A DNA stretch of 64,000 nt from an uncultured Rhizobium sp. GTDB taxonomy: Bacteria; Bacteroidota; Bacteroidia; NS11-12g; UBA955. The DNA lies in assembly GCA_964527775.1 (NCBI GenBank), contig CAZGQS010000005.1:2745-66744 (forward strand). The letters run 5' to 3'. The position numbers and the translations under genes were made by a program. The notes beneath the pieces were generated by a model that was given only the letters and a program-made list of their open reading frames with translations, was not told the origin of the DNA and did not search any database. Within the stretch, counting starts at the first letter, position 1; every line of letters begins with the position of its first letter. Below, piece after piece: positions 13,004-30,010 of this stretch.

Positions 13004-15220
13004 TTATAGATCTATTCCATACAGTTGGTATTCAGAAATGATTTCGGCTTCCAAAGATTCAGAGCACCTCAATGATGCTGCGTCTATATGCATGAATGAA
13101 TGGACTACTTGAAAAATGCCCAGTTTTTTGGCTTTTTGTTGCAAAATATCTGTCATCACCAATCCCAATCCACCAAGTCTAAAATCGGGTTTTCGAGCTA
13201 CTGTTTTCATGATGATGGAATTATTTTCAATGTCTAAGTAGGCAAAGACAAATCCCTGCAAATTCCGTTCCAATTCTGCTAGAAGTACCCATTCGGGATC
13301 AATTAAATGTTTGATTTCGTTGTATTTCAGTAAAAAGTCTTTCCAATGTATGGGTGTATAGTAGGGATTGTGTTGGAAGGCCACGAGGCTGAGCTCGTGG
13401 ATTTTGTGAAGTTCTTCTTCCCAATGATTCGGGTTTAAATGCCTGAATCTGATGCCTTGGATTTCCAATTGACTTTTTCGGTCATCCAATCTGGAAATGC
13501 TACCAGGAATTTCGTGCATGAGGGTACTTACATATCGTTCAATGGGTTTGAATCCCGCATTTTCAAAGAACTCAATCTGTTCAGGTTGGTAGGGGATATC
13601 CCCCAAAAAATTGCGATGAGAAGTGGTTTTTAAACGATAATCGTTCCAAGTACTTCCTCCGTTCATGGGGCCAATGATGCGTTTGTAGCCGTTTTGTTGG
13701 GACCAAATTATCAGTTTTCGGAGGTCGGTGATCGGTGATCGGAGGTCGGTGATCGGTGATCGGAGGTCGGAGGTCGGTGATCGGAGGTCGGAGGTCGGTG
13801 ATCGGAGGTCGGTGGTCAGTACACGGCTATCAGAGTTCGGCTGACGGCTTTCGGCTGGTGGCTGTAGGTTGAAAGCTGAGGGCTGATTGCAGTTGACTGA
13901 TAGGGCTAATGTTTCTAAATTTAGGGGCCAGATATGGATGGTGATCGGTGATCGGAGATCGGTGGTCGGTGATTGGTGATCGGTGATCGGTGATCGGTGA
14001 TCGGTGGACAGTACACGGCTATCAGTGTTCGGCTGACGGCTGTCGGCTGATGGCTGATGGTTGCCCGCTGAAAGCTGATCGCTTTCGGCTGATGGCTGAA
14101 GGCTGAAAGCTGACGACTGATCGTTATAATCAATGACAATGGTATTGTAGAAGTAACCGTCGTCTTGAGCGCGGAGTTCCGACATGAGGTCTGATTGTTC
14201 TGTTAGTGTGGGAACTACCTGTGAACATCTTCGGGTGACCATCAAATTCCAGTAAGCCAAACGTCCCCCGGGAAAAAGACCGGAAGATAGTTTGGTGGCG
14301 GCCTCGCTGAATTCAGATTCATTCATATATTCGAAGATGTTGCTCAGGTTCATGGCGTGGAAATGTCCGTAATGAGAAATAGCGTCCTCGGCGAAACCGT
14401 GAAATAATGAAATTCTATGGATTCTGGCTTTGATGAATTCGTAGTTATTTGGTTGAAGGTAGTGGGGCAAAAGTTCGCCGAAACTGCCCGTTAGATTGTA
14501 GCGAAGAAAGGGGTTCTGCTGCGCGCTGACAGAACTTAAGTGAGTTTCAGCTTGATTCAATATGAAATCTGAAACGGGTATCTTCACTTGTTTTAAGAAT
14601 TCGGGGTCGCGGCCCAATCTTCCCATGACGGTGCGACTGAAAAACAATTTGAACAATCCGCGCCAACGCCAAGTGTTCCATTTGTTTAGAAAGAATTGGC
14701 GCTGTTCATGGGCCGATTTGGGAGCGAATAATTCAGCGATTCTATTTTTGTTGTGAATCAGCGGGAGGACTTTTTGGGAAAAAATTTGGAAGTACTTTTC
14801 GAATTTTCCATGATGAATGATGCCTGTTGAATTCCATTTAGACAGCGTTTTTGAGAAGTAATTGGCTGCATCTTTAGAAAGATGGGGAACTAATATGTTG
14901 AATAGATCCGCACGATTTGAGGCGGGTGAATATCCCAAGAAAGCAAGAACCTCGGAGTAAGTAAGGTGCTCAATGGCCCTAATTTTCAGCTCGGTTAAAT
15001 AGAGTTGAACAGGGTTGATGTCGGCGGCAACAATCAGTTTTGGGTCGGCCATCAACAGACTGAAACAGTTGTCACCTGCGGAGGCAATGCTTAACACCTG
15101 ATCGTGTTTCTGAATGTTGAGCGCTTTGAGCAAGACTTTGGGGTCTTCCCAAACCGTGGCATAACGAATGAAGTCAAACGATGCTGATTGTGAAATGCTC
15201 AATCTTCTAGTTCCCTCCAT
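13004..15220 (-). CDS. BtaA-like (DUF3419, SAM-dependent 3-amino-3-carboxypropyl transferase-like) N-domain joined to a GNAT-like C-domain through heptamer-repeat-encoded linkers
   Basis: The N-terminal ~365 aa carry FIRYATVWEDPKV and SIASAGDNCFS (BtaA-like). Residues ~366-500 are 7-aa repeats (DLRSPIT, DHRSPIT, SRQPSA). The C-terminal part has IIGPMNGGSTWNDYRL and an acyltransferase-like fold pattern. Confidence 0.7.
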   Translation of the reverse strand: MEGTRRLSISQSASFDFIRYATVWEDPKVLLKALNIQKHDQVLSIASAGDNCFSLLMADPKLIVAADINPVQLYLTELKIRAIEHLTYSEVLAFLGYSPASNRADLFNILVPHLSKDAANYFSKTLSKWNSTGIIHHGKFEKYFQIFSQKVLPLIHNKNRIAELFAPKSAHEQRQFFLNKWNTWRWRGLFKLFFSRTVMGRLGRDPEFLKQVKIPVSDFILNQAETHLSSVSAQQNPFLRYNLTGSFGELLPHYLQPNNYEFIKARIHRISLFHGFAEDAISHYGHFHAMNLSNIFEYMNESEFSEAATKLSSGLFPGGRLAYWNLMVTRRCSQVVPTLTEQSDLMSELRAQDDGYFYNTIVIDYNDQSSAFSLQPSAESDQLSAGNHQPSADSRQPNTDSRVLSTDHRSPITDHQSPTTDLRSPITIHIWPLNLETLALSVNCNQPSAFNLQPPAESRQPNSDSRVLTTDLRSPTSDLRSPTSDLRSPITDLRSPITDLRKLIIWSQQNGYKRIIGPMNGGSTWNDYRLKTTSHRNFLGDIPYQPEQIEFFENAGFKPIERYVSTLMHEIPGSISRLDDRKSQLEIQGIRFRHLNPNHWEEELHKIHELSLVAFQHNPYYTPIHWKDFLLKYNEIKHLIDPEWVLLAELERNLQGFVFAYLDIENNSIIMKTVARKPDFRLGGLGLVMTDILQQKAKKLGIFQVVHSFMHIDAASLRCSESLEAEIISEYQLYGIDL
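13719..13887. repeat. Heptanucleotide-phased tandem repeat block A1 (GGTGATC/GGAGGTC units, then GGCTGAC-type units)
   Basis: The period-7 repeats can be read directly. The block shares a near-identical ~47-nt core (13811-13857) with block A2 (14003-14049). Confidence 0.9.
13939..14122. repeat. Heptanucleotide-phased tandem repeat block A2 (GGTGATC x ~9, then GGCTGAT/GGCTGAA/AGCTGAx units)
   Basis: The period-7 repeats can be read directly. It is separated from A1 by ~50 nt of unique sequence that encodes IHIWPLNLETLALSVN on the minus strand. Confidence 0.9.
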
Positions 15221-17730
15221 GAATTCTCTAACACAATTTTGATTTTACCGGTGGCACCGTCCATTTCAACGATGTCGCCAGTTTCAAGTTGATTCAATAA
15301 ATTGGTGATACCCACAATGCAAGGTTTTCCTAATTCTCGTGAAACAATGGCGCTGTGAGATAGGAGGGAGCCTCTTTCTACCAAGATTCCAGATGCCGTT
15401 GGAAACAACATCACCCAACCTGGGTCGGTGGATGAGGTTACTAAAATGTCTCCATTTAAATCGCTCACTTCTCGAGGATCTATTACAATTCTCACCTTTG
15501 CTTTGACGATGCCAGGACAACACCCAATGCCTTTGAGATCAGCACCTTCCAACGAACTTTTGGTTTCTTGAATGAAAGAGTTTGCATGGTAGACGTTCCC
15601 ATAAGTTCTGATTCTTTCGGAGGTGTTTTGGGACTCGTAACCTTGGTATTTCACCTTTCTGAATTCTATGAGATCGGCAATTTCTGGCGTAACCGATGTT
15701 CCCTTGATGAAGTCAAAAATTTCTTCTTGGGTTAGGTAAAAAATGTCACGCGGGTGTTTGATGATGCCTTCGCCGTAAAATTGATTTCCGATGGCCAAAA
15801 ACAGTTCTCTTATTTTTCCAAATCCGCGGGTTCGTTCAAACCTGAGGTTTTCGCGCGCGCTCACCATTTCACGGGTTTTGCCCAAAACATAGTTGAAAAT
15901 CCGTCTTTTAATGGGTTTATCCCTGAAGGTTTCTTTAATAATGTCTTCGCCTTGTTTTCTGAGGTCTTTATGCGAAGGTTGGCCGTAAGATGGGTCGTTG
16001 GTTGAACTGTAATTCGCTTGATATCTCACGTGTGACTGAATCAAAGCTGCGAACATTGCAGGATCTTGTCTGTAGGTTATGGTTTCAAGTTTGAGTTCTC
16101 CCACGGTGCGGTCGCCAAATTTATCAATGTAGTATTTGAATTCTTTTAAAACGTTTTCAAAGTTTCTGTCTGTTTCAAAGGCTTTTAAAATCTCCTCGGG
16201 AGTGGCCTTAACTATAAATTCAATCCAATTCCAGTGCTTGCTAAGTTTGTCAACAATTTTTTCAATTTGATGGATGGGCTCTACTGAAATGATATCTCCA
16301 GCACTACTCAATAATTGATTGTGAATGCCGTCGGGGAGTTGATATTTTTCGGCCAACTTTTGAGTAAACCCAAAGTAAATCATGGCATAAAAATCATTCA
16401 CCAATGGAGCTTTCCATTTTTTCAAAAGGGTTTGTTCGAACCTTAAAATCAATTCCATCAACTCATGTGAATCTTTTTCGTGGAGCGGAATTTGGTTGAA
16501 TTCATCCATGACTTTTTGGAAGTCGGCTTGAAAAGTCACCCTCATTTTAGGAAGTGCCCTCAAGTTGCTGATCATCGATTTAATCATGATCAACACACGC
16601 GTTCTTTCGGTCCATTTGCTTCTTTTGGGAAGGTCTTTCAGCTCAAATCGCTCTTTCACGCCCATCATTTTCTCCATGAATTCGGCGTTGAGATGATATC
16701 CGGGCAATAAGGCTAGAGCTTTGTACCACGATAGAAGATTGTAATAAACTCGGCCGTTGATAAGACCCAGCATATTGGCAAAAATTCCCGCATTTTTGGT
16801 TAAATCTGCTTCGCTCACACCCAACAATCTGCAAAGTTGGATGTACACTGATTCATACATCTTAATGATAAAACTAAAGGTAAGGGGAGTGGTGACTCCC
16901 GGATACGATTCGATGATGTTGGAATTGTCCCACAGTATCATCTCCGATGATTGATCAGACGTCAGATTCAGCGTGGTTACGGGTCTGCTTTGAAGTAAGT
17001 AAAATTGCTCATCCTCCCAGCAAAATTCGATGTCTTGCGGTTTTTTGTAAAGAGCCTTCAGGTCGCTTAGAACCTTGCAAATATGTTTAAGCTGATTGGG
17101 TGTGAGTTTTGTTTCGGGGGATGCTTGGAAGTCAGAATCTATCAAATTTCTGGTTGTTGAATCCAAAATGTAGGTATCAGAATTCAACTCTCCGCTAACC
17201 AGTCCCTCACCCAAACCGCACACAGCCGATATCACGATTTCTTTGCGTTTGCCGTTGACGGGATTCATTCCAAAGGCAACACCTGAAACCGCAGGGTTGA
17301 GCATGCGCTGAATCACAATTCCCATTTTTTGTGGGGGTTCAATACCGTGTTCGTGGCAATAAGCAACCACTTCAGGTCGTTTGAGCGAGTTCCATACATT
17401 GGTGATGGCCTGATTCACTTGGTCCCATTCAACATTTAGTTGAGTCAGAAATTGACCGGCAAAACTCTGACTTCCGCTGTCTTCGCCCAACGCCGATGAT
17501 CTTACCGAAACGAATTTGGGACTGCCCAAATAGTCTTTGATTTCTTGAAGTTCAACCTCAGACAGTGGTTTTGAAATATCAATCTGTTGAGCATTGTACA
17601 CAACAAATTCAGGAACTTTGAATCCATAGTCTGAAAGATGCAACAGGTTGAATCCCTTCCCCCCACTGAATATGGGATTGGATTTTACATCGAATGGACT
17701 TTTATATAAAATGAACTTTACGAAATCCAT
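15199..17730 (-). CDS. PEP-utilizing-family dikinase-like enzyme (ATP-grasp N-domain, large central domain, C-terminal swivel phosphohistidine domain; no PEP/pyruvate TIM-barrel domain)
   Basis: The N-terminal GGKGFNLLHL...VPEFVV is a PPDK_N-type ATP-grasp motif. The C-terminal TSSTDPGWVMLFPTASGILVERGSLLSHSAIVSRELGKPCIVG is the mobile His domain. I chose the start at ATG 17730 (MDFVKF); the track start is 17781. Confidence 0.85.
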   Translation of the reverse strand: MDFVKFILYKSPFDVKSNPIFSGGKGFNLLHLSDYGFKVPEFVVYNAQQIDISKPLSEVELQEIKDYLGSPKFVSVRSSALGEDSGSQSFAGQFLTQLNVEWDQVNQAITNVWNSLKRPEVVAYCHEHGIEPPQKMGIVIQRMLNPAVSGVAFGMNPVNGKRKEIVISAVCGLGEGLVSGELNSDTYILDSTTRNLIDSDFQASPETKLTPNQLKHICKVLSDLKALYKKPQDIEFCWEDEQFYLLQSRPVTTLNLTSDQSSEMILWDNSNIIESYPGVTTPLTFSFIIKMYESVYIQLCRLLGVSEADLTKNAGIFANMLGLINGRVYYNLLSWYKALALLPGYHLNAEFMEKMMGVKERFELKDLPKRSKWTERTRVLIMIKSMISNLRALPKMRVTFQADFQKVMDEFNQIPLHEKDSHELMELILRFEQTLLKKWKAPLVNDFYAMIYFGFTQKLAEKYQLPDGIHNQLLSSAGDIISVEPIHQIEKIVDKLSKHWNWIEFIVKATPEEILKAFETDRNFENVLKEFKYYIDKFGDRTVGELKLETITYRQDPAMFAALIQSHVRYQANYSSTNDPSYGQPSHKDLRKQGEDIIKETFRDKPIKRRIFNYVLGKTREMVSARENLRFERTRGFGKIRELFLAIGNQFYGEGIIKHPRDIFYLTQEEIFDFIKGTSVTPEIADLIEFRKVKYQGYESQNTSERIRTYGNVYHANSFIQETKSSLEGADLKGIGCCPGIVKAKVRIVIDPREVSDLNGDILVTSSTDPGWVMLFPTASGILVERGSLLSHSAIVSRELGKPCIVGITNLLNQLETGDIVEMDGATGKIKIVLENSWRELED

Positions 17731-18644
17731 TGCCAGGCGGTGAGTATTCCTCCGAGGGTTAGGTACATGAGAATGGTCCATAGTCCGCTGGCAATTTCAA
17801 CGCCTTTGGCGGTTTTAGAACTCTTGTATTTAAAATGTAGCGCTGCTGATATTAGGGTCAAGACAAAATAGATAAGCAATGCGGCAAACACACTACTGGG
17901 TAATTTTGCATAATCTGCTGCGAGGATGGCCAGTATCAATGTCCCCAGAAGAACAAACATCCAAAGCCAAAGGGCTTTGCTGAGACCCAACATGGCTGAG
18001 TAAGTTTGAACACCGGGTTTTTCATCGTGGGGAGCACGGATTTTACGTCCCAATTCCAACACAATGCCGTTCATGAAAGACACCCCGAAGAAGTATAACA
18101 GTCCGAAAGGAGCTGGATTATCAGATAGTTTCCAATCATATCCTGATGCATAAACATCAATCAAAGGAATGATGAGCATGTGGGATGTGACGTACCAAAA
18201 CTGGTGGTTTTTGAGCCAATCTTTGATAAAGAATTCTTTGCCCATGAGCAGTAAATAACCAATTGCAAGGGCATAGAGGGGAAGCATATTAGGAAATGTC
18301 AACGCGCTGATGATGATTTGAGCGGCAAAGACAAACCAAGCAATGTTTCGGAGTTCTTTTAGAGAAATGAGTCCTCGAGGAACGGGCAGTTCTGAGCGGT
18401 AGAGGGCATCGTCTTCGGCGTCTTTGTGTTCATCAAAAACACGAAGCAAAAAGAAGAGGGTTACCGTGTTGAAAATGCAGACCAAAAACTTTTCCCAGCC
18501 AATGAATCCGGGGAGTTGTTGCGACAATCTAGAATAGCCTATGGCGCTGAAACTGAAGGCAGAGATGAGGATTCCGTGGGAGTGTAGAGGGAATCTTTCA
18601 TTGAGGTATTGCCAAAATCTTTGGTAGAGTGGGGTTTGGGACAT
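17718..18644 (-). CDS. UbiA-superfamily prenyltransferase (integral membrane)
   Basis: About 8-9 TM segments. The first Asp-rich motif is LLRVFDEHKDAEDD. A second motif-like region is APHDEKPGVQTYS. Confidence 0.85.
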   Translation of the reverse strand: MSQTPLYQRFWQYLNERFPLHSHGILISAFSFSAIGYSRLSQQLPGFIGWEKFLVCIFNTVTLFFLLRVFDEHKDAEDDALYRSELPVPRGLISLKELRNIAWFVFAAQIIISALTFPNMLPLYALAIGYLLLMGKEFFIKDWLKNHQFWYVTSHMLIIPLIDVYASGYDWKLSDNPAPFGLLYFFGVSFMNGIVLELGRKIRAPHDEKPGVQTYSAMLGLSKALWLWMFVLLGTLILAILAADYAKLPSSVFAALLIYFVLTLISAALHFKYKSSKTAKGVEIASGLWTILMYLTLGGILTAWQWIS

Positions 18645-18762
18645 GGGATAGGTTCTGAAAGGTTCGAATGTACGCGGATTTTGAAGAGGTTCAAAAAGGA
18701 AAAATGCAAAAAGTGAAGTTGTAAATTACGGATTATCCTTAAAAATTAAAGATTTAGGTGGA

Positions 18763-18770
18763 TATATTTG
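18763..18770 (+). promoter_or_regulatory. Candidate Bacteroidota -7 promoter box (TATATTTG)
   Basis: It matches the TAnnTTTG consensus and lies 10 nt upstream of ATG 18781. Confidence 0.35.
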
Positions 18771-18780
18771 CCTTCCATTG

Positions 18781-21060
18781 ATGAAAGTTAGTGAATTGAA
18801 TGTGCCATTTGTTCCCGGTAGAGGTTTTAATACCTCTTCGGCGGTTCAAATGCGTTTGGATTATCTTAGAAAAAGAGAGATTTCTCTTCCGTCTCTAGAA
18901 ACACATCAGTTGCCCTTAGACGAAGTAAGAAATAATATAGAATCATTTATAGGAAGCGTAGAGATTCCTGTGGGCTTAGTTGGCCCACTGTTATACCATG
19001 GTGAAGATGGTCAGGATGAATGGGTTCATGCTCCCGCCGCCACCTTGGAAGGTGCTTTGGTTTACAGCATGAACAGAGGTGCAAAGTTGATCTCAAAAAG
19101 CGGCGGTTTTACCGCTCATTTTCATTATCAGAAAATGCTGCGGGCGCCCATGTTTATATTGGGAAACCCAGATGTAGTCCAGAAGTTATCTGAATTTATT
19201 TCATCGAATTTTGATGCCATTAAAGAGGTTGCCGAGTCTTATTCCAATCACGGAAAGCTTATTGAAGTTCAGTGCGAACCCATTGATAATCATTTAAATG
19301 CTTATTTTTATTATGTGACAGGAGATGCCGCAGGACAGAATTTAACCACTACTTGTACATGGCACGCGCTTCAATTTATTGCTGAAAATTTTGACGGGGA
19401 GATTTTAGATTATGTCATAGAGGGCAATGGCGCATCCGATAAAAAAATATCCCTCAGAAACATAGAAAAGGGAAGAGGCAGTAAAGTGTCAGCTGAAGTT
19501 GTAGTTGATGATGCGATGATAGAAGAAGTTTTGAGAACTACTTCTGATCAAATCATGAGGTATTTTGAGCCGTCTAAGCGCATTGCATTGCAACACGGTA
19601 TGGTTGGATATAGCATCAATGCGGCCAATGCCATTGCCGCTATTTTTGCTGCTACGGGACAAGACCTCGCGTGCATTCATGAGTCGGCGACGGCATTTTT
19701 AGACATCGAAAGGCTTGAAAATGGGCTTAAATTCTCTTTGCTTTTGCCTAATTTGGTCATTGGAACTGTGGGTGGCGGCACTCATTTGGCTAAGCAATCG
19801 GATGCTTTGAATTTGATGGGTTGCAAGGGCTCAGGTAAGGTCAAGCGCTTCGCTGAACTCATTGCTGGGTTCACTCTAGCCCTTGAAATATCTACTTTTG
19901 GAGCCATAGTGAGCGGCGAGTTTGCTAAGTCACACGAGAAGTTGGGAAGAAATAAGCCTCAAAGTTGGTTGCTAAAATCTGAAGTTAATCTTGATTTCGT
20001 AAAGTCAATTTTGGTTGCTAAAGATGCTCCTTCGGTTGAATTTCTTGAATGGCAAAGTCATTTGTACTTTGACAATGGCATCATCACCCAACTTTCTCAA
20101 AAAGTGAGTAAAAAGCTTCAAGGTTATTACTTGTTGAAGGTCAAAGAGTCTAGTAACGGATTGGTGCTTTTGAAGTCGCGTCCCACCAGCGACGAAGTCA
20201 TCAAAGGGCTGCACTTGATTGCGGTTTCGGTTGACGGTCAACTCGCTGATTTATTGTTGTTTTGTCGAGAGTATTTGGAGTTTCACCAATGCCATTTGAA
20301 GGAATTGGCAATCAATAGGTTTTTGTTTTCCGGGGGATATGCTTACGCTCCCAAATATTATGGTGATAAAATTGACAGTCAGCGCGAGATTTTTTTGCTC
20401 GCTCAAGAATATATTTACCCTCAGAATACCCGTTTACTGAACTCGGAAGATCAGCCCAATTTATGGCAATCAGTTGATGTCATAAAATGCATCGACGCCA
20501 TAAACGAGTTTCACATCAAAACGTTTGGGTTAGATGGTATTGAAGATGTTCAGATTCCATTGCAACAACCCTGGCTCGCAAGCTCTTTCTACCAGCGTTT
20601 ACAAGAGATCTTGGTTCAAACTTGGGATGGTGACCATTTGGAAGTCTTGAAAAGTCTCAACATTGCTTCGTTGGATGAAGAATTTTCAACCCTAAAAATG
20701 CCTACCTGTTTTATTCACAACGACTTTAATCCACGAAACATCATGATTCTTAAAAATGGTAATCCCGTAATTTACGATTGGGAATTAACCGTGAGAGACA
20801 TACCGCAGCGTGATATTATGGAGTTGTTGTGTTTTGTTTTAAAAGATGATGAATCACCCGAACCATATATGCGTTATCACTGTAAACTAATAAACGCAGA
20901 TTGGGCAGAATATCAACGCGCTGCAAAATATGCCTTAAAGAGTTTGATTCTAACTAGATTTGCGTTGTACGAAGTATCGGGAATTGTAGCGAAGTATGAG
21001 TTCTCGAAGCGCGTGATGGGGAAGGCGTTGAATTTGACGGCTTCGCCGGAGACTTTTTGA
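18781..21060 (+). CDS. HMG-CoA-reductase-like (class I type) catalytic domain fused to an APH/choline-kinase-like phosphotransferase domain
   Basis: HMGR-like motifs are ESFIGSVEIPVGLVGPL, TLEGALVYS, GDAAGQN, ASDKK, ATGQDLA, GTVGGGT and KSHEKLGRN. Kinase motifs are FIHNDFNPRNIMI and IYDWELT. The track start is 18778 (TTG), followed immediately by ATG. Confidence 0.8.
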   Translation: MKVSELNVPFVPGRGFNTSSAVQMRLDYLRKREISLPSLETHQLPLDEVRNNIESFIGSVEIPVGLVGPLLYHGEDGQDEWVHAPAATLEGALVYSMNRGAKLISKSGGFTAHFHYQKMLRAPMFILGNPDVVQKLSEFISSNFDAIKEVAESYSNHGKLIEVQCEPIDNHLNAYFYYVTGDAAGQNLTTTCTWHALQFIAENFDGEILDYVIEGNGASDKKISLRNIEKGRGSKVSAEVVVDDAMIEEVLRTTSDQIMRYFEPSKRIALQHGMVGYSINAANAIAAIFAATGQDLACIHESATAFLDIERLENGLKFSLLLPNLVIGTVGGGTHLAKQSDALNLMGCKGSGKVKRFAELIAGFTLALEISTFGAIVSGEFAKSHEKLGRNKPQSWLLKSEVNLDFVKSILVAKDAPSVEFLEWQSHLYFDNGIITQLSQKVSKKLQGYYLLKVKESSNGLVLLKSRPTSDEVIKGLHLIAVSVDGQLADLLLFCREYLEFHQCHLKELAINRFLFSGGYAYAPKYYGDKIDSQREIFLLAQEYIYPQNTRLLNSEDQPNLWQSVDVIKCIDAINEFHIKTFGLDGIEDVQIPLQQPWLASSFYQRLQEILVQTWDGDHLEVLKSLNIASLDEEFSTLKMPTCFIHNDFNPRNIMILKNGNPVIYDWELTVRDIPQRDIMELLCFVLKDDESPEPYMRYHCKLINADWAEYQRAAKYALKSLILTRFALYEVSGIVAKYEFSKRVMGKALNLTASPETF

Positions 21061-21087
21061 CTTAGGACGGGCGCATCGCGCTGCTTT

Positions 21088-21166: not shown

Positions 21167-21934
21167 TCACGGTAACTTAGCAATCATCCTATTATACCGT
21201 TCCTGGTATTTGTTGCCGGTTTTTCCGCCGAGCTTTTTGTGAAGTTCGTGGATGTGTTGAACGCGTTTGCCTGGGTCTGGGTGAGTGCTTAAGAATGCGG
21301 GGATGTTTTGTCCGCCGGAGGCGGACATCCGCTCAAAGAATCCGGCTGCACCAGTGGCTTGATAGGATGTGTTGTAGAGCCATTTAACTGAATATTCATC
21401 TGATTCGAGTTCGTCTTTACGTCCGTATTTCAGAAATGCGAGACCGGCTGCAATGTTTGTTAGATCATGATATTGAGTATCTATGAATAGGTGGGTAATG
21501 AGGGTGATTCCGTATTGACGGGTTAAGGCATCGGTGCTGTGTCTTTTTGCAGCGTGGGCGATTTCATGTCCCATAACACCAGCAAGCTCGTCTTCGGATT
21601 GAAGGTATTTAAGTATGCCTGTGTAGAAATAAATGTAACCACCGGGAGTACAAAAGGCGTTGAGGGTGGGGTCATTGATGATCCTAATACGCCATGGAAA
21701 GCGAGCTTCGTGATCAATTTCGTTGTTCTTGAAGATGCTGTCCCTGATGGAATACAAATAGCGGTATATGACGCCATTTGTGGTACTATCGAGAATGTTA
21801 TTTTTATTGTCTTTGTCAATTTGGGCAGCGGCTTGCGCACCAAAGTTGAGGTCAGATGAAACGGGAAAAACGTTTAGGCTCTTAGAAAATGTGGAGCAAC
21901 CCACGAGAATGAAGGCGGCTAATAATGGACGCAT
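21167..21934 (-). CDS. M48-family zinc metallopeptidase, lipoprotein
   Basis: HExxH occurs in GVMGHEIAHAAKRH, with a downstream ELESDEYS. The signal peptide has a lipobox (ILVGCS). Confidence 0.9.
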   Translation of the reverse strand: MRPLLAAFILVGCSTFSKSLNVFPVSSDLNFGAQAAAQIDKDNKNNILDSTTNGVIYRYLYSIRDSIFKNNEIDHEARFPWRIRIINDPTLNAFCTPGGYIYFYTGILKYLQSEDELAGVMGHEIAHAAKRHSTDALTRQYGITLITHLFIDTQYHDLTNIAAGLAFLKYGRKDELESDEYSVKWLYNTSYQATGAAGFFERMSASGGQNIPAFLSTHPDPGKRVQHIHELHKKLGGKTGNKYQERYNRMIAKLP

Positions 21935-23777: not shown

Positions 23778-23801
23778 GCTGCGAAGATAGTTAATTCAGT
23801 T

Positions 23802-23910
23802 GACAGCGGTCAGCGGTCAGCTATCAGCTATCAGCTATCGGTGATCGGTGATCGGTGATCGGTGATCGGCTGTCGGCAGAAAACTGAGAATTGATCACCG
23901 ATTACCGATT
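23802..23910. repeat. Heptanucleotide repeat block C: (CAGCGGT)2 (CAGCTAT)3 (CGGTGAT)4, plus an inverted GATCACCGATTACCGAT arm
   Basis: The repeats can be read directly. The inverted arm can pair with the CGGTGAT run to form a long hairpin immediately downstream of the peroxiredoxin stop. Confidence 0.9.
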
Positions 23911-23911
23911 T

Positions 23912-24559: not shown

Positions 24560-24563
24560 GATT

Positions 24564-24571: not shown

Positions 24572-24614
24572 GAGAGATGAATTTTTAGATAAGGTGACAT
24601 AGGTCACGTTTTAT

Positions 24615-24712
24615 GGCTTTCAGCGGCCAGCGGTCAGTTGAAGGTCTAGAGATTAGAGTTGAGCCCGCTACCCTCTAAACGCTACACCCTGAACTCAAAA
24701 GCGGTCAGCCGA
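24615..24712. repeat. Degenerate heptamer-phased block D (CAGCGGC, CAGCGGT; xxTAGxG units on the minus strand)
   Basis: GGCTTTCAGCGGCCAGCGGTCAG sits at the left end and AGCGGTCAGCC at the right end. The interior is phased with period 7 when read on the minus strand. Confidence 0.55.
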
Positions 24713-25810
24713 TTATTGAACCGTATAAATCGCCATTCTGTTCAAATGGCCGAAGTGCGATTTTAGAGCATCGTAAAAAGTGCGGTGAGATTTGTATGGG
24801 AGATTGAATTCTTGGGCAGTCTGTTTTACAATTTTAGAGATGTTTTTATAGTGCACATGACAAACGGTAGGAAACAAATGATGTTCTATTTGATAATTGA
24901 GTCCCCCGAAAAACCAAGTTAAAAAAGCGCTATTCTCAGCGAAATTGGCCGTGGTTTTCATTTGATGAACGGCCCAGTTGTTTTCCATACTTCCATTATT
25001 GTCATCTGATGAAAAGAATTCCATGTCATCGCCAACATGAGCAGGCTGAGTGGCATAAGCCAAAATGATTCCGCTAATAAAATGGTGTATAAAATATCCG
25101 GCTATAGTATATCCAACAGAAAAAGGAGAGAAATAGATGGGCAAAAAAAGAGTTACAGGCCAGTAAAGAGTTTTTAATACAATGATTTCAGTGAGGGCTC
25201 GGCGATCGGTTCGGCCGTATTTGGAATAGAGATTTTGACCTTTATACCGATTGTATTGCTCAAAATCTTTGCTCAGAATCCAAATAAACGGATAAATCAT
25301 ATATAAAACTGTAGAATAGAAAGCCTGAAATTTATGAAGGAAAAAATAGGGGTGCTTGGGTGAAAATCTGATAATGGTTTTTCTGATATCTTCATCGTGT
25401 CCTACTATATTGGTATAGGTGTGGTGGAATACATTGTGCTGAATTTTCCAATTTACGTGGTATGCACCAACTAAATTAAGGAGCCCTCCCATGAATTCAT
25501 TTACTTTGGGATTTCGAGAGTACGCTCCGTGGTTTGCATCGTGCATGATGGTTAATCCAATTCCTACCATCCCCAATCCCATGATTGCCCATAAAATAAA
25601 ATGCGTGTAGAGAGTGGAAATCGGACCAACAATGAGCCAGGTTAAAGGAATGATATACAGTAAAACAATGATGACAGTTTTTAAGTACATTGCACCGTTG
25701 GCAAATTTGCTTATTTGATTTTCACTGAAGTATTCATTAACTCGGCGAGTGAGCGTGGTAAAGAATTCTGGGTTATCTGTTTTATTGAACGATATCTTTG
25801 AATAATCCAT
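24713..25810 (-). CDS. Membrane fatty-acid desaturase (no cytochrome b5 fusion)
   Basis: Three histidine boxes are present (HDANHG, HNVFHH, QIEHHLFP), together with TM segments. Confidence 0.9.
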   Translation of the reverse strand: MDYSKISFNKTDNPEFFTTLTRRVNEYFSENQISKFANGAMYLKTVIIVLLYIIPLTWLIVGPISTLYTHFILWAIMGLGMVGIGLTIMHDANHGAYSRNPKVNEFMGGLLNLVGAYHVNWKIQHNVFHHTYTNIVGHDEDIRKTIIRFSPKHPYFFLHKFQAFYSTVLYMIYPFIWILSKDFEQYNRYKGQNLYSKYGRTDRRALTEIIVLKTLYWPVTLFLPIYFSPFSVGYTIAGYFIHHFISGIILAYATQPAHVGDDMEFFSSDDNNGSMENNWAVHQMKTTANFAENSAFLTWFFGGLNYQIEHHLFPTVCHVHYKNISKIVKQTAQEFNLPYKSHRTFYDALKSHFGHLNRMAIYTVQ

Positions 25811-25902
25811 GTTTTAATTTGTTCAATTTTACATGAAATATTTCATCAAAAAATTCGTTAAGTCCTAGAATGTCTTAGTTTTGCATTGAATTTATAACGG
25901 AA

Positions 25903-26034
25903 ATGAAAAAGTTGTTAAGTATTATTTTGGTAGTCGTTGGTGTGTTTATGTTTGTAAGCGCTTGTAAATCAACACACAGAGCAGACTTTAATCCAATAAA
26001 AAGAAAGTCAATCAAAGCTTGTCCTTCTTTTTAA
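25903..26034 (+). CDS. Possible small lipoprotein (43 aa), absent from the ORF track
   Basis: The ORF MKKLLSIILVVVGVFMFVSACKST... has a clean signal peptide plus lipobox and lies in an otherwise empty intergenic region. Confidence 0.35.
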   Translation: MKKLLSIILVVVGVFMFVSACKSTHRADFNPIKRKSIKACPSF

Positions 26035-26078
26035 GGACTAAAATATTGTGTAGTAGATTGTGTAGTTTTTAGGGTTGA

Positions 26079-26966
26079 TTAAAACCTCAAAAACGTTCCC
26101 AACGGAAGTTTCTTCTTGAACTTATCGGTTAAATAAAGTTCTCCGAGTTCAATTTTGGAGGTTTTCAGGTGTGACTTGAAATGTTGGTAGACCAAATTTT
26201 CGGTGATCAACGCTGAAAATCCTAGAGAATATAAGTTTATAACGAAGAATCCTTGTGGGGCTAGAATTTCTGAGCACATATGGAGCAGTTCGTTTATTTG
26301 CTTTTCAAGCACCCATTTTTCTCCTTGCGGTCCGCGGCCGTAGGCGGGAGGATCTAAAATAATGCCGTCGTATTTTTTGCCTCGTTTCACTTCTCGTTGA
26401 ACAAATTTAAAGGCATCTTCAATGACCCAACGAATGCCGTCTAGGTTAGAGGATTCCATATTTTCTCGACTCCAAGTTACTACTTGCTTTACGCTATCTA
26501 CATGGGTAATATCTGCGCCGGCTTGACAAGCGGCGAGCGATGCACCACCGGTGTAAGCAAAAAGATTCAGTACTTTAGGTTGATGTTTGAAGCTTTTGCA
26601 TTTGGCGGCAATAAAGTCCCAATTGCTGGCCTGTTCTGGAAAAATTCCTACATGTTTGAAGGATGTAAGGGCCAGTCGCATGTTGAAGTTGAGCGGTCCT
26701 TTTTTGTAGTTTACCAACCAACGATCGGGCATGCCTTTTTTGATGGTCCAGTTTCCGGCATCGGCATCAATTTTTTCTCCTGCTTTTCTGAAGAATTCGG
26801 CGTGAGATTGGCTCTTCCATTGTTCTTCGGGAAGGCTTTTACTCCAAACGGCTTGAGGTTCTGGTCTTCTGAGCACCCACTTGCCGAAGCGTTCTAATTT
26901 TTCGAAATTTCCGCTGTCAATGAGTTCGTATTCGGGCAGCGTATCTGGAGTAACGGTTAAAAGCAC
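26079..26966 (-). CDS. Class I SAM-dependent methyltransferase (RlmI/RlmK-like rRNA methyltransferase type)
   Basis: The SAM-binding motif is NLFAYTGGASLA and the catalytic-region motif is IILDPPAYG. The start codon is GTG. Confidence 0.8.
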   Translation of the reverse strand: MLLTVTPDTLPEYELIDSGNFEKLERFGKWVLRRPEPQAVWSKSLPEEQWKSQSHAEFFRKAGEKIDADAGNWTIKKGMPDRWLVNYKKGPLNFNMRLALTSFKHVGIFPEQASNWDFIAAKCKSFKHQPKVLNLFAYTGGASLAACQAGADITHVDSVKQVVTWSRENMESSNLDGIRWVIEDAFKFVQREVKRGKKYDGIILDPPAYGRGPQGEKWVLEKQINELLHMCSEILAPQGFFVINLYSLGFSALITENLVYQHFKSHLKTSKIELGELYLTDKFKKKLPLGTFLRF

Positions 26967-27019
26967 ATGGCAAAGATAATTTTAAAATGTAAGTAAACCT
27001 TTGTAGGTTTACTGCGTCT

Positions 27020-28564
27020 ATGAAACGTATGCAATTAAAAATATTTTTTTTGCCCTTTATTCTATTTTTGGCAGCAAAGATAGGCGCTCAATCTGCACCC
27101 AATTGGAGCGAACATGTAGCTCCCATCATTTATAAAAGTTGTACTCCTTGTCATTCCAGTGGCGGTATTGCTCCGTTTGCCTTGAGCAATTACCAAGAGG
27201 TTAAATACCTAGGCAATGCGGTGGTTTCGGCAACACAGGCACGTAGAATGCCCCCTTATCCTGCAAGTTTAGAAAAAAATAGATACGCTCATGAAAATGT
27301 TCTGTCTGCCTATGAAATTGACGTAATCAAGCGGTGGAATGAGAATAAACATCCCCAGGGAGACACCACCAAAGAACCCAAAAAACCCGTTTTGAATTCA
27401 AACAGTGACTTGCCTCGCGTGGATGTTACCTATAAAATGACGCCTTACCTGGTGAAGACCAATAGCGATGTTTACAGATGTTTCGCGATTCCTAGCAACT
27501 TGTTTTCTGATAAAATGATCAAAGGGATGGAAGTGATTCCTGGAAACAGAAAAGTGGTGCATCACGTTTTGGTATTTCAAGATACCTCACAAAAGCCCTT
27601 ACAATTAGACAATGCTGATCCAGAACCCGGCTATAAGGCCTTCGGAAGCACCGGCAGTGCGAGTTCTACTTTGTTGGGGATGTACGTTCCAGGTCAGTCA
27701 CCGTTTTTGTATCCATCAAATTTTGCTGCTCGACTGAAAAAGAACAGTGTAATTGTGCTTCAAATTCACTATCCCCCAGGTATCAACGAAATTTGGGATT
27801 CTACCAAGCTCAATTTGATGCTCGAAGACCCCTCAAATCAAAGAGAAGTTTTTGTGCAATCACCATTGAATTTTCAAAGTCCCTCTCTCGTAAACGGTCC
27901 ATTATACATCGAAGCCAATGCCATAAAAACATTTTACAATCGATTTGTTATGCCTGCGAAAATCAGTCTTTTGGCGGTGGCTCCCCACATGCATTTGTTG
28001 GGTGATACTATAAAATCATCTTTGATAAATGGAACCGATACTACTCCCATTATTGATATTCCCAAGTGGGATTTCCATTGGCAAATGGCCTATCAATTTC
28101 GCAAGCCTATCGTTGCTGATAAAGGGTCAGTTCTCTGGGGTAAGGCAACCTATGATAATACCTATGCCAATCCGCACAACCCGAATGTTCCTCCACGTGA
28201 TGTGAGAGCAGGAGAGGGTACTGCCGATGAAATGTTCTTGATTTATTTCTGGTATACTCTCTACAAGTCGGGCGATGAGAATTTGGAATTGGATACCACG
28301 CCGCTAAAGATGTTGAGTGTTTCTAAGGTAAATCCAAATAACATGCTGGTATATCCTAATCCCGCAAACAATCAAATCAACGTAATCAATGCACTTCATG
28401 GGTCAAAGATTCGTGTCTATAATTCTGTGGGAAAACTGATCTTTGAAACCTCGGTGAACAGCGCCACAACATTTATCAATGTCCATAATTGGCCCGACGG
28501 AATGTATATTATTCAAAATTCAAGTTTGAATGGAGATTCGATTGTTCGATTTTTGAAGAATTAG
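27020..28564 (+). CDS. Secreted cytochrome c-like domain fused to a PHM/DBH-like copper type II monooxygenase, with a T9SS type A C-terminal domain
   Basis: It has a signal peptide, a CTPCH heme-binding motif with a downstream RRMPPYP, and Cu-site-like motifs VHHVLVF, LQIHYPPG, APHMHLLG and GTADEMFLIYFWY. The C-terminal LVYPNPANNQINVI... is a Por_Secre_tail-type domain. Confidence 0.7.
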   Translation: MKRMQLKIFFLPFILFLAAKIGAQSAPNWSEHVAPIIYKSCTPCHSSGGIAPFALSNYQEVKYLGNAVVSATQARRMPPYPASLEKNRYAHENVLSAYEIDVIKRWNENKHPQGDTTKEPKKPVLNSNSDLPRVDVTYKMTPYLVKTNSDVYRCFAIPSNLFSDKMIKGMEVIPGNRKVVHHVLVFQDTSQKPLQLDNADPEPGYKAFGSTGSASSTLLGMYVPGQSPFLYPSNFAARLKKNSVIVLQIHYPPGINEIWDSTKLNLMLEDPSNQREVFVQSPLNFQSPSLVNGPLYIEANAIKTFYNRFVMPAKISLLAVAPHMHLLGDTIKSSLINGTDTTPIIDIPKWDFHWQMAYQFRKPIVADKGSVLWGKATYDNTYANPHNPNVPPRDVRAGEGTADEMFLIYFWYTLYKSGDENLELDTTPLKMLSVSKVNPNNMLVYPNPANNQINVINALHGSKIRVYNSVGKLIFETSVNSATTFINVHNWPDGMYIIQNSSLNGDSIVRFLKN

Positions 28565-28648
28565 TTTTTAAGGATTTTCCGTAATTCTTTTTTTGAGATT
28601 TGCGAAAAATGCAAAAGTTGTTTGATTAAGACTTCTTAGTTTCGTTCC

Positions 28649-30010
28649 ATGCAAAAAAGTGCTTTGGTATTACGGATTTTCACTTTGGTTTTTTCTTTTG
28701 TTTCTGGGGGACATTTATTCGGTCAAGGAATCATGGGAGAGGGTAGCTCTTCATCGGTTCTCAGTCAACCCAATCGGCCATTGCCACCGCTTGATAAAAC
28801 AAATCTGGGTGAAATCTCCTATTACGACATCACTCAAGAATTGCTTGACTCTCTCCGTAGCAGATACAGACTTCAAAAAACACCTTATTACAAGGTGAAA
28901 ATGTCAATTGGGAATTTTTCAGAATCAGGGGTATTAAGACAGCAGGTTTATTTGGGATTTGGTTCAGCGAAAGCAAATGACAAGGTCTTTCGTATGAAAC
29001 GGAATTTAGTCAAAGGGAAGCTCATTGCAGTAGATTCACATGGAGTCTACCTCTATCAGAAGTCAGCAAAAAAAATGGGATTTGTACCATATACTGATAT
29101 TTGGTATATCAGAAGAGGAAATACAAGTTCAGATAAAATAATTCGAGATGCAAGCGCAATCATTGGTACTACAACTCTTATTGGAATGGGAGCTGGAATT
29201 GCAGAAGGGGAGTTAGATTATGTACCACTCGGGGCTATAATTGGTGGGTTCGTAGGTGCTTTCCTTTCACCGTTTGTCATAGTTCCAGATTTGATTTATC
29301 ATGAACTTCAAAATACTTCAAAGCGCATAAAATTCCGTATAAATTACCGCAGTGATAAGATGACTGATTACATTGCGATGGTAGAAAAAGACCGTTACCG
29401 CTATGGTAAGCGCATTATGTATCATGAGTTTCCGGGTTCTAACAATTCCACTATTGATCAGGATCAACCAGTAATCAGCGATCAGCCTTCTTCCACGAGC
29501 CACGAGCCAATTGCTAAAGACCAAGAGCCAGTAATCAGCGTTCAGCCTTCAGCTAACAGCCAACAGCCAATTGCTAAAGACCAAGATCCAATATCCAAAG
29601 ACCAACAACCAATATCCAAAGACCAAAATCCAATAGTTTTACCACCCTTCAAATCGGGTAAATACATTTCTGCTGCTTGGATGATTCAAGGGTTTGAATC
29701 GAAGTTTGTAAATGTGCAACGTATGCTCAAGACGTTTCCAGATTTGAGGAACAGTCAATTGACAGATGCCGATAAAGCACTTTTTAAGAATTCTGATGAA
29801 GTAAAATATGCAGCAATGCTTATTTGTACCCCTTTGGGATTTGATTTCAGTAAAGCGGTAGCATTGAATGAAAGCCAAGCAAATGACCTCACACAATTGT
29901 TGCCTTATTACAACGTTCAAGTTGTTAATGGTCAAACGGTAATTAAGTCAAGTGGATTGACTAGAATTGACGAAGTGAATTTGGAATTCCTTTACAAGTT
30001 GATGAAATAA
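28649..30010 (+). CDS. Membrane protein of unknown function with a heptamer-repeat-encoded low-complexity linker
   Basis: It has a signal peptide and glycine-zipper TM segments (GTTTLIGMGAGIA, GAIIGGFVGAFLSPFVIV). A PISKDQx repeat linker is followed by a ~120-aa C-terminal globular region. Confidence 0.55.
   Translation: MQKSALVLRIFTLVFSFVSGGHLFGQGIMGEGSSSSVLSQPNRPLPPLDKTNLGEISYYDITQELLDSLRSRYRLQKTPYYKVKMSIGNFSESGVLRQQVYLGFGSAKANDKVFRMKRNLVKGKLIAVDSHGVYLYQKSAKKMGFVPYTDIWYIRRGNTSSDKIIRDASAIIGTTTLIGMGAGIAEGELDYVPLGAIIGGFVGAFLSPFVIVPDLIYHELQNTSKRIKFRINYRSDKMTDYIAMVEKDRYRYGKRIMYHEFPGSNNSTIDQDQPVISDQPSSTSHEPIAKDQEPVISVQPSANSQQPIAKDQDPISKDQQPISKDQNPIVLPPFKSGKYISAAWMIQGFESKFVNVQRMLKTFPDLRNSQLTDADKALFKNSDEVKYAAMLICTPLGFDFSKAVALNESQANDLTQLLPYYNVQVVNGQTVIKSSGLTRIDEVNLEFLYKLMK
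29455..29640. repeat. Heptanucleotide-phased block E inside a CDS (CAGCGAT, CAGCCTT, GAGCCAC..., then CCAATAT/CCAAAGA/CCAACAA units)
   Basis: The period-7 phasing can be read directly over ~185 nt. It is translated in frame as 7-residue repeats (PISKDQQ, PIAKDQE). Confidence 0.7.

Follow-up and report, generated by a model that had tools for sequence, protein, structure and literature searches.

Heptanucleotide repeat arrays between genes and within protein linkers of an uncultured Bacteroidia genome: probable slippage-driven simple-sequence repeats

Six sites within 16 kb of a 64-kb stretch of DNA from an uncultured member of the Bacteroidia (the window) carry tandemly repeated heptanucleotides, which raises the question of whether such arrays are selected cis-elements, copies of a dispersed element, or the product of local slippage. 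The original prediction of a multi-locus family of related heptamer arrays proved to be real by Tandem Repeats Finder, by a period scan and in the raw sequence, with which the repeat units that had been listed also agree. Period-7 arrays are found at 13718-13887, 13940-14123, 21088-21170, 23802-23911 and 29455-29640, and the summed array length of about 760 bp amounts to 1.2% of the window. Tandem Repeats Finder recovered period-7 arrays at five of the loci first noted, with calls at 13718-13817, 13940-14006, 14030-14123, 21126-21170, 23804-23869 and 29493-29635 and with 2.4 to 14.3 copies per array, and the head-to-tail heptamers can also be read directly. When periods 3-13 were scored in a self-match scan of the 64 kb, counting every scan interval with at least 30 self-matches out of 42, there were 208 such intervals at period 7 and none at periods 3-6 and 8-13 (period 14 is a harmonic). 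At a laxer threshold period 7 yielded seven regions totalling 567 bp and period 9 a single region, and periods 5, 6, 8, 10 and 11 yielded none in the 64-kb window. No Rfam family was found on the arrays.

It is scarcely credible that the arrays are artefacts of assembly. Short-read contigs do frequently break within them, and four (L119, L122, L124 and L142) each terminate in one, but the same arrays recur in independent assemblies, orthologous arrays are present in NCBI, ENA, JGI and Logan data, and open reading frames continue across arrays in every genome compared. Two Logan contigs are 99.98-100% identical to positions 25745-36892 (L123) and 24651-31089 (L124) of the window, the array at 29.5 kb included, and the sister metagenome-assembled genome (MAG) GCA_023653095.1 and a Logan contig are 100% identical across the arrays of the BtaA gene (L118 and L119).

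That gene (13004-15220, minus strand) encodes a 738-aa BtaA-GNAT fusion, and two arrays lie in the linker that joins its domains. At the N terminus is a BtaA-like domain (Pfam DUF3419, aa 14-334, E = 1e-67), the C-terminal domain adopts a GNAT fold in an AlphaFold model with GNAT matches in Foldseek, and alignment shows that this architecture is kept in relatives without arrays. On the coding strand block A2 (13940-14123, minus strand, linker residues about 367-427) is stop-free and passes from CAGCNNT-type units through a core into GATCACC units; block A1 (13718-13887, minus strand, residues about 445-502) has the same composite layout, with GACCTCC and GATCACC units, and carries the boundary motif CCGAAAACTGA at its array end (13711-13721). 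The blocks are separated by an ancestral, non-repetitive linker segment, ITIHIWPLNLETLALSV (13888-13939, minus strand), which is conserved as PLNxETLA in array-free relatives and in the region of which the model predicts a beta-hairpin at aa 427-443. The pLDDT falls below 50 at aa 370-427 (A2) and aa 442-498 (A1), that is, at exactly the array-encoded residues, between two confidently folded domains. Block A2 is shorter in two relatives (L118 and L122) and missing in an outgroup (L120), and the reading frame remains open through arrays of varying length in homologues of 738, 689 and 681 aa. The near-identical core of the two blocks (13811-13857 versus 14003-14049) was confirmed, with one mismatch in 19 nt, as part of a 154-nt stretch whose two copies, spaced 192 nt apart, are 84% identical. 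The proposal that this core is a mobile composite element was not borne out, the core being local to one linker and absent from the rest of the window and from 122 fetched loci.

The other coding array (29455-29640, plus strand) encodes residues about 270-330, in an internal linker, of a secreted protein of 453 aa (28649-30010, plus strand), which is identical to protein P0057 in public data and for which no Pfam family matched. It presents its stop-free strand to the reading frame and leads from CAGCNNT-type units into CCAAAGA and CCAATAT units. In alignment the linker is hypervariable among relatives: homologous linkers (L125-L130) are heptamer-phased too, with different lengths, and outgroup linkers of 186, 165 and 144 nt differ in steps of 21. 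The array-encoded linkers of both proteins are of low confidence in structure and are probably disordered.

The remaining arrays lie between genes. The spacer at 21061-21166 separates the convergent genes, identified by Pfam, of an HMG-CoA reductase/APH protein (HMGR, plus strand) and an M48 peptidase (minus strand); its [GGCTGAx]n units give way to [GATCACC]n, and small GC hairpins lie beside the HMGR stop codon. Directly 3' of the peroxiredoxin gene, the spacer at 23802-23911 (orthologous array, L126 5236-5322) reads [CAGCGGT]2 [CAGCTAT]3 [CGGTGAT]4, a loop, and then inverted TCACCGA TTACCGA. The inverted heptamers form a hairpin (23837-23909; arms 23837-23853 and 23893-23909) that starts 3 nt past the peroxiredoxin stop codon, folds as RNA at -43.3 kcal/mol (z = -5.1; -3.9 at the sister locus) and is followed on the plus strand by TTTTTAAATTGATTTTTT, the T-run being on that strand only. 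In L126 a convergent Pyr_redox_2 gene ends just upstream of it. On the basis of these sequence features the hairpin is probably a bidirectional terminator, albeit a putative one, that arose from inverted blocks. A further site (24621-24712), flanked by the start of the peroxiredoxin gene and the stop of the desaturase gene, holds CAGCGGC CAGCGGT CAG ... CGGTCAGCCGA. The original prediction of an array at 24615-24712 was right as to the heptamer units but not as to their being degenerate: this is a short remnant of 2.5 units (24621-24637) and 1.5 units (24702-24712), split by a 64-nt quasi-palindromic insertion (24638-24701) that is unrelated to its units. The sister genome has five contiguous units and no insertion there (L126 5960-6070).

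Comparison with relatives, advocated from the outset, confirmed that they differ in presence or absence, copy number and unit variants. The closest genome to the window is a Bacteroidia MAG. In the sister MAG GCA_023653095.1 all six window sites are occupied, in flanks that are 90-93% identical, but with other copy numbers and unit variants. The orthologous M48/HMGR spacers of L118 and L122 likewise vary in both, and units range from CAGCCGT and CAGCTAT in the former to CAGCTCT and CAGCTTT in the latter, with other mixes in the window. In more distant relatives the sites are empty; in the outgroups L120 and L121 the linker of the BtaA gene is short, overlap of the M48 and HMGR genes leaves no spacer, and no period-7 region occurs in 35 kb. 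The 3' site of the FTCD gene is likewise empty at 82-84% amino acid identity (L141 and L143), and L057 and L142, at 95% identity, both carry arrays there but with quite dissimilar units. All recovered homologues of the coding arrays are in frame, with no frame-breaking homologues or on-off alleles among them.

These observations are likely, in our judgement, to reflect slippage-driven, largely neutral and hypervariable heptanucleotide simple-sequence repeats that are filtered by selection. A short run of 7-nt units would serve as a seed, to be expanded, contracted and homogenised by slipped-strand mispairing and by unequal or ectopic recombination; units altered by point mutation would be amplified in their turn, so that arrays become composites of related units that all keep one 7-nt phase. 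Most arrays would be neutral passengers, and selection would set where they persist, namely in spacers beside gene 3' ends and in disordered interdomain linkers. A linker would accept an array only if the stop-free strand is the one translated and the overall change in length is a multiple of three nucleotides, as it is with every three units (21 nt, seven residues). This reading is supported by the enrichment of period 7 alone in the window, by sites that stay occupied while their units change, by the empty sites of more distant relatives, by open reading frames through arrays of unequal length, by the low pLDDT of array-encoded residues, by the absence of Rfam matches on the arrays and of mobile-element genes in the window, and by the arrays published for Xanthomonas and Nostoc (PMC4692102). 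Three GGTGATC units in tandem, moreover, occur in at least 117 stretches from many phyla, among them at least five further places on four contigs of the sister MAG, located on three other contigs and elsewhere on contig 2 (L047, L049, L057 and L081). Direct arrays folded as single-stranded DNA do no better than shuffles (z = +1 to +1.9), so a hairpin-assisted slippage mechanism finds no support, and neither slippage nor the literature gives a reason for the unit length of 7 nt.

The original prediction also held that the units carry stop codons asymmetrically and that the arrays are oriented to match, which would imply that TGA-rich strands are turned toward incoming genes as a translation back-stop and stop-free strands toward open reading frames. 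The TGA content is as stated for the TGA units that were named, but four of the 11 unit types of the window are stop-free on both strands, and GGAGGTC, CCAAAGA, CCAATAT and CAGCCAA all have this property. One-sided stop content, seen in 32 of 57 observed units, many of them related by descent, is expected in 34-40% of random heptamers. Both coding arrays do offer the stop-free strand to the reading frame; since arrays of at least three units are read in all three frames, only that strand can survive within an open reading frame, and the orientation of the coding blocks is an unavoidable survivorship that carries no information. At 21061-21166 both convergent genes encounter TGA-bearing units first. 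However, the same [GGCTGAx]n[GATCACC]n composite also lies between co-directional genes (L047 and L057), where its second half faces nothing, the gene at L081 enters 17 stop-free units, and every gene has its own stop codon ahead of the array. When the sense strand of the gene was scored at 27 gene-3'-end flanks, it was stop-richer in 13, stop-poorer in eight and tied in six, so the orientation rule for intergenic arrays did not hold. A back-stop role is thus largely refuted and very improbable. The asymmetry is real but ordinary, a filter effect combined with shared unit descent and not a design feature, because selection tolerates only the stop-free strand in linkers.

Two other explanations deserve more weight, though both are unlikely. 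The intergenic arrays could be selected cis-elements. A G-rich block and an inverted C-rich one after it could pair into a terminator or into a 3' hairpin that stabilises RNA, or the arrays could be bound by a protein that reads heptamers; of the two explanations, selected cis-elements are the slightly less improbable. The peroxiredoxin hairpin fits this in its position, in its fold at both loci and in the T-run on the plus strand where the convergent gene ends in L126, and several inverted-block arrays of relatives fold well (z = -4.0 in L142, -3.7 in L057, -3.7 in L047 and -4.2 on the minus strand of L049). Yet the fold of the M48/HMGR spacer is not distinguishable from that of shuffled sequences (z = -0.9 and -0.4), the plus strand of L049 (+0.6) and L103 (+2.0) also fold poorly, a U-tract is absent after most arrays, and a consensus terminator scan matched none of them. 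Of 205 baseline spacers 33 are divergent, compared with one of the 21 that hold intergenic arrays, the other 20 having a gene 3' end on at least one side; with n = 21 this trend is not significant. The persistence of all six sites in the sister genome, across about 8-10% nucleotide divergence, could reflect function instead of neutrality; against this, sequence and unit family have turned over completely at one fixed site, which makes a sequence-specific binding protein hard to reconcile with the data, and outgroups do without any spacer at these sites.

Slightly more doubtful still is a common origin by something other than local slippage, either as a dispersed non-autonomous composite element or through a trans-acting process that adds, in polar fashion at one end, whichever heptamer is currently templated. 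Unlinked arrays share a common order, with a T-rich head followed by [CGGTGAT]n, [CAGCNNT]n, a GC hairpin and [CCAAAGA]n, and three loci of the sister MAG that are not linked (L047, L049 and L057) show one succession of unit families in continuous 7-nt phase, as does the M48/HMGR spacer. The variant units CGGTTTT and CAGTTTT stand at array heads, the motif CCGAAAACYGA coincides precisely with array ends (L047, L057, L118, L122 and the window at 13711-13721), the hairpin CGGCGAAGCCG recurs within the arrays of both L049 and L057, and the duplication of the A1/A2 core is real. Independent local slippage leaves the common order and this motif at unlinked arrays unexplained; we assume ectopic conversion as their source, and gene conversion between arrays could indeed yield common motifs. 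That more than slippage alone is at work, as first proposed, is hinted at by the shared order and boundaries. Other evidence speaks against an element. Genes for a transposase, reverse transcriptase or integrase are absent from the 64-kb window, neither terminal inverted repeats nor target-site duplications are identifiable, and the relatives compared include no filled and empty sites similar enough for an insertion junction to be read. The layout also varies, the peroxiredoxin spacer having its unit families in reverse order and the BtaA linker having the GGTGATC block in the opposite orientation. A close relative has unrelated units at the FTCD site, the A1/A2 core is confined to one gene, and 2.9 million viral contigs lack the clade-specific junction.

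Simple-sequence repeats filtered by selection have counterparts elsewhere. The short tandemly repeated repetitive (STRR) sequences of cyanobacteria, reportedly described by Mazel and colleagues in 1990, were an apt analogy. Their consensus units in heterocystous cyanobacteria are CCCCAGT, TTGGTCA and CAACAGT. Like the window arrays they are built of heptamers and come in several families within one genome; they are scattered over many loci, for which the further arrays of the sister MAG are a possible parallel, and one cyanobacterial locus (L080) has a matching composite look. Membership of STRR1-3 was rejected, as the window holds no tandem pair of these three units and belongs to a different phylum. 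Phase-variable contingency repeats, such as the 7-bp repeats upstream of hmw1A in Haemophilus, share slippage-prone short units, and in a coding array a change of one unit would be a frameshift. They occupy promoters or 5' coding regions and switch genes on and off, whereas the window arrays are found in 3' spacers or in linkers in the middle of proteins, with relatives all in frame.

Parallels are also offered by prokaryotic long simple-sequence repeats (LSSRs) whose unit is 7 nt long (Mrazek et al. 2007, cited in both PMC4679880 and PMC4692102), which resemble the window arrays in that period 7 exceeds other unit lengths, in being mostly intergenic, in keeping the same gene neighbours in relatives with varied length and sequence and occasional inversion, and in having no known associated mobile-element genes. 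Heptamer repeats are over-represented in bacteria, an excess for which polymerase slippage is cited as the explanation, and the GGGAATC arrays of Xanthomonas and the GGGGA(T/C)T arrays of Nostoc occupy the same intergenic sites across related species, with extensive variation in length and sequence and some inverted arrangements (PMC4692102). The window differs from these in its units (GGTGATC, GGCTGAC, CAGCNNT and CCAAAGA), which are not G4-forming, in its uncultured Bacteroidia host, in having two arrays translated as protein linkers, and in joining several unit families in recurrent order. The original prediction was aware of no equivalent in Bacteroidota, but TAACTGA heptamer repeats occur in five Bacteroidetes as well as in Beggiatoaceae and Cyanobacteria, and the same stop-asymmetry argument has been made for them: one strand has stops in all three frames, the other is translatable, and within genes it is protein termini or the joints between modules that tolerate them (MacGregor 2015, PMC4679880). 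They too share spacers with other heptamer families, close relatives have shorter, repeat-free spacers, and contigs terminate within the arrays. In Beggiatoaceae they cluster just upstream of start codons (PMC4679880), whereas the window arrays lie at gene 3' ends and in linkers. Membership of the TAACTGA family was rejected, the window having nine single copies and no tandem pair.

The window arrays have features of the LSSR/STRR-like class, with tandem heptamers, an excess of period 7, and conserved sites at which copy number and units vary. They belong to an already described class of bacterial simple-sequence repeats, known in this phylum as well, and in this genome they are fast-evolving sequences between genes and within the flexible linkers of two proteins.

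The heptanucleotide arrays are real, and the observation is better supported than the original prediction, made from the sequence alone, could know. The heptamer units that it had named are seen in the raw sequence at the arrays it listed, and a tandem-repeat finder, which it had proposed as a check, recovers them: Tandem Repeats Finder places period-7 arrays at 13718-13817, 13940-14006, 14030-14123, 21126-21170, 23804-23869 and 29493-29635. A self-match scan of the whole window, with a threshold of at least 30 matches per 42-nt scanning window, scored 208 such windows at period 7 and none at every other period from 3 to 13, and a laxer scan gave seven regions at period 7 versus 0-1 for periods 5-11. 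In total the arrays amount to about 760 bp, or 1.2% of the window, the G+C content of which is 38.7%. The array at 29.5 kb is covered by independent Logan contigs that are 99.98-100% identical to the window across it, and for the sister genome's arrays in the linker of a BtaA-GNAT fusion protein the NCBI MAG and a Logan contig have the same sequence; this agreement among independent assemblies rules out an assembly artefact. A CRISPR reading was also rejected, as the period is 7 nt and there are no spacers. Short-read contigs tend to break off within arrays, and four of the contigs fetched for comparison (loci numbered with an L) end inside one. The degenerate array proposed at 24615-24712 does contain array units but is a remnant: about four units are left, and a 64-nt insertion of unrelated sequence (24638-24701) separates them.

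The closest genome is the MAG GCA_023653095.1, labelled Bacteroidia bacterium, which is syntenic with the window over about 43 kb (L118, L126) and has flanks that are 90-93% identical. All six sites are filled in this sister MAG; copy numbers and unit variants differ from those of the window. A third relative (L122) has CAGCTCT and CAGCTTT units, versus CAGCCGT and CAGCTAT in the other genomes. In an outgroup whose BtaA is 77% identical (L120, L121) there is no period-7 region within 35 kb, the BtaA linker is short, and the M48 peptidase and HMG-CoA reductase (HMGR) genes overlap, leaving no spacer. A further site, taken from the sister MAG, lies 3' of an FTCD gene; this spacer carries CCAAAGA, CAGCTCT and CGGTGAT units in that genome (L057 5625-5817), is empty where FTCD is 82-84% identical (L141, L143), and in a metagenome contig at 95% FTCD identity (L142 2507-2698) holds unrelated GGGTAGC, GGTGCCA and GGGGGTC units followed by ACCCGAA. 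It follows from these orthologous sites that the sites persist while array content turns over fast. A metagenome scan with the conserved HMGR 3' flank as the query returned no match.

Two conserved proteins have absorbed arrays as probably disordered linkers, the length of which changes in frame-preserving steps. The first is encoded by a 738-aa ORF on the minus strand (13004-15220), with a DUF3419/BtaA domain at aa 14-334 and a C-terminal GNAT fold; its C-terminal half is matched by no Pfam model. The two-domain architecture must be ancestral, as it is also present in relatives without any repeats. The two array blocks, A1 and A2, lie on either side of PLNxETLA, a conserved remainder of the old linker, and coincide exactly with two stretches of pLDDT below 50 (aa 370-427 and 442-498). 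A 47-nt core is indeed common to both blocks, but the mobility that had been read into it is not borne out, there being no copy beyond these two in the window or in 122 fetched loci. A simple tandem duplication is hard to square with the ancestral segment between A1 and A2, which is conserved in all relatives, including those that lack arrays; conversion between the blocks is the likelier event. The gene belongs to a conserved cluster (11424-21060) that resembles lipid or isoprenoid biosynthesis and includes genes for an AMP-binding enzyme, the BtaA (DUF3419)-GNAT-fold fusion, an 860-aa PEP-utilising Rph-like enzyme, a UbiA prenyltransferase, and an HMG-CoA reductase fused to an APH-type kinase. 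Exact-protein look-ups of the 738-aa protein and of the peroxiredoxin encoded elsewhere in the window gave no recorded sequence.

The second protein, of 453 aa (28649-30010), has a signal-peptide-like start and no Pfam family, and carries the array at 29455-29640 in an internal linker; among relatives this linker is hypervariable. In an outgroup clade of this protein the linker is a DPLPTTN repeat itself made of ACCNNNN heptamers (L125 10766-10924 and the linkers of L128, L129 and L130), and its lengths in three metagenomes, 186, 165 and 144 nt, are exact 21-nt steps. Contigs with the DPLPTTN linker also bear an intergenic GGGAGAC/GGGAGTC array (L128 60-134). Taken together, the heptamer linker and the intergenic array of the outgroup clade imply that heptamer arrays predate the window's immediate clade.

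The strand asymmetry in stop codons that had been attributed to the units holds for GGTGATC, GGCTGAx, AGCTGAA, CAGCGGT, CAGCTAT and CAGCCGT, but GGAGGTC, CCAAAGA, CCAATAT and CAGCCAA are stop-free on both strands. Of random heptamers, 34-40% are expected to have stops on one strand only. All fetched loci together yield 57 distinct units that occur in three or more exact tandem copies; 32 of these are one-sided, 21 stop-free and four have stops on both strands, a mild excess of one-sided units in a set that consists largely of variants of each other. Since arrays of three or more units are read in all three frames, only the stop-free strand can survive within an ORF, and the match between array orientation and ORF that had been pointed out is therefore uninformative. 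The corresponding rule for spacers, that arrays present stop-rich units to incoming genes, is not supported: at 27 flanks where the 3' end of a gene reads into an array, the sense strand of the gene is the stop-richer one in 13, the poorer in eight and tied in six. The [GGCTGAx]n[GATCACC]n arrangement that the two convergent genes run into at 21 kb recurs in the sister MAG where the neighbouring genes are co-directional (L047, L057), and at another locus (L081) a gene reads directly into 17 stop-free units. The same argument has been made for TAACTGA repeats: they close every frame in the forward orientation and can be translated from the reverse strand, and proteins tolerate them at their ends or between modules (PMC4679880). 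The stop-codon logic is a selection filter rather than a function.

Between genes, arrays are found at 21061-21166, separating the convergent HMG-CoA reductase/APH and M48 peptidase genes, at 23802-23911, directly 3' of the peroxiredoxin gene, and, as the remnant array, in the 24621-24712 region between the peroxiredoxin start and the stop of a fatty-acid desaturase. Inverted heptamers in the peroxiredoxin spacer form a 16-bp stem that begins 3 nt past the stop codon; this hairpin (-43.3 kcal/mol, z = -5.1 in the window) is conserved in the sister genome (z = -3.9), and on the plus strand a T-run follows it, at the place where the sister's convergent Pyr_redox_2 gene ends. The hairpin is a putative terminator for both directions. 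The 398-aa Pyr_redox_2 gene, which in the sister lies between a 103-aa gene and peroxiredoxin (L126 3918-5322), is missing from the window (23778-23911), and the junction is occupied by the heptamer array and hairpin, the array being longer in the window than in the sister. A terminator role at the M48/HMGR spacer is unsupported, as the fold there is not good. Several inverted-block arrays of relatives fold well (z = -3.7 to -4.2). An Rfam scan of the whole window returned a single tRNA and no match on the arrays, and a consensus terminator scan matched none of the arrays. Intergenic arrays in low-GC loci (n=21) lie between co-directional genes in 13 cases, convergent genes in seven and divergent genes in one, against a baseline of 137, 35 and 33, a trend away from promoter regions that is statistically not significant.

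The insertion in the remnant array is an imperfect palindrome (TTGAAGGTCTAGAG...CTGAACTCAAAAG) set in a small CAGCGGT array, with the heptamer CGGTCAG on both sides. The sister genome (L126 5960-6070) lacks it, and the window has one copy, with no other in the fetched loci except on the near-identical strain contig L124; it could represent a very small mobile hairpin element with heptamer arrays as its targets. Nearby, 35 nt upstream of the peroxiredoxin start codon, an inverted repeat, GTGACATAGGTCAC (GTGAC-N4-GTCAC; 24594-24607), is kept in the sister genome as GTGACATTGGTCAC (L126 about 5995-6010) and looks like a putative redox-regulator operator. In a Cyclobacteriaceae MAG (L068 4125-4270), the RNA of the G-rich strand of a CGGTAAT/CGGTCAT array is strongly self-complementary via G-U pairs (z = -9.4), AUCGGU pairing with itself, and the C-rich strands are not self-complementary; such strand asymmetry at the RNA level might be relevant for transcribed arrays.

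Three tandem copies of GGTGATC occur in at least 117 stretches of a species-representative genome collection; among the matches listed, these come from MAGs of at least 10 phyla, including Bacteroidota, Verrucomicrobiota, Planctomycetota, Chloroflexota, Acidobacteriota and Cyanobacteriota, and several genomes contribute multiple contigs; the window's own genome does not appear among the matches listed. Clusters within single genomes, again among the matches listed, were seen in Akkermansiaceae JALOTY01, Caldilineales JAJTXO01, Pirellulaceae CAYPGE01 and Acidobacteriota CAWAXG01. Viral contigs rarely carry this triple repeat (10 stretches), and none of 2.9 million of them has the clade-specific array junction; there is no sign of phage carriage. 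That bacteria have more heptamer SSRs than expected was reported in 2007 and explained by polymerase slippage, as cited in PMC4679880 and PMC4692102, and the arrays of Xanthomonas and Nostoc retain the same gene neighbours in related species while length and sequence vary extensively (PMC4692102). The original prediction was aware of no equivalent in Bacteroidota, but heptamer arrays have been described in five Bacteroidetes, some of them reaching 43 copies and interspersed with further heptamer families (PMC4679880). The arrays resemble the cyanobacterial STRR in being heptanucleotide repeats, but STRR units are not repeated in the window, and neither are TAACTGA, GGGAATC or GGGGAYT. The window arrays belong to the known class of STRR-like heptanucleotide SSRs, and the original interpretation was only partly right.

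Plain slippage does not predict that unit families recur in the same order across unlinked loci. In the window's clade, unlinked arrays share one order in one continuous 7-nt phase, namely a T-rich head (CGGTTTT or CAGTTTT), [CGGTGAT]n, [CAGCNNT]n, a small GC hairpin (CGGCGAAGCCG or GCGGCTGAGCCGC) and [CCAAAGA]n. A degenerate GATCACC-like unit, CCGAAAACYGA, lies exactly at the ends of arrays at unlinked loci (L047 1365-1375, L057 5642-5652, L118 3475-3485, L122 7931-7941 and window 13711-13721); it is also present at window 23877-23887, and in the BtaA gene it overlaps the conserved codons R-K-L-I. Exceptions to the order are the peroxiredoxin spacer, where it is reversed, and the BtaA linker, which is stop-free because its GGTGATC block is inverted. 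The GGTGATC arrays of other phyla have only point variants of the unit, without composite order, among the matches listed. Slippage assisted by hairpins was rejected as a general mechanism, as direct GGTGATC/GACCTCC arrays fold no better than shuffles as ssDNA (z = +1.1 to +1.9); the GGCTGAx block on the plus strand is the only array with some folding excess in that form (z = -3.1).

Gene conversion between arrays is the cheapest explanation of the shared order. We consider it improbable that the arrays, rather than being products of independent slippage, were left behind by a polar and sequence-templated process or an unrecognised non-autonomous element which seeds and extends heptamer arrays at gene 3' ends; a search of the window for a propagating enzyme detected neither a transposase, reverse transcriptase or integrase nor an Xis-like gene. 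Were such a process or element at work, it would explain the succession CGGTGAT, CAGCNNT, CCAAAGA in one phase at unlinked arrays, the common degenerate boundary unit CCGAAAACYGA, and the presence of different unit families at one site despite a 95% identical flanking protein, and it would be relevant to why bacterial repeats favour a unit of 7 nt, a question of long standing.

The arrays are a clear, well-documented case of a known and poorly understood class of bacterial repeats in an uncultured Bacteroidia lineage, and neither linker absorption nor the recurrent unit order changes that classification. What the finding contributes is useful comparative detail, and the shared composite order is its one loose end. 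In practice its value is modest: arrays break short-read assemblies and inflate gene predictions through spurious stop-free ORFs, and they could prove good markers for strain typing. For the proteins concerned, array-derived linkers that lengthen and shorten in frame-preserving steps offer a simple route to linker evolution.
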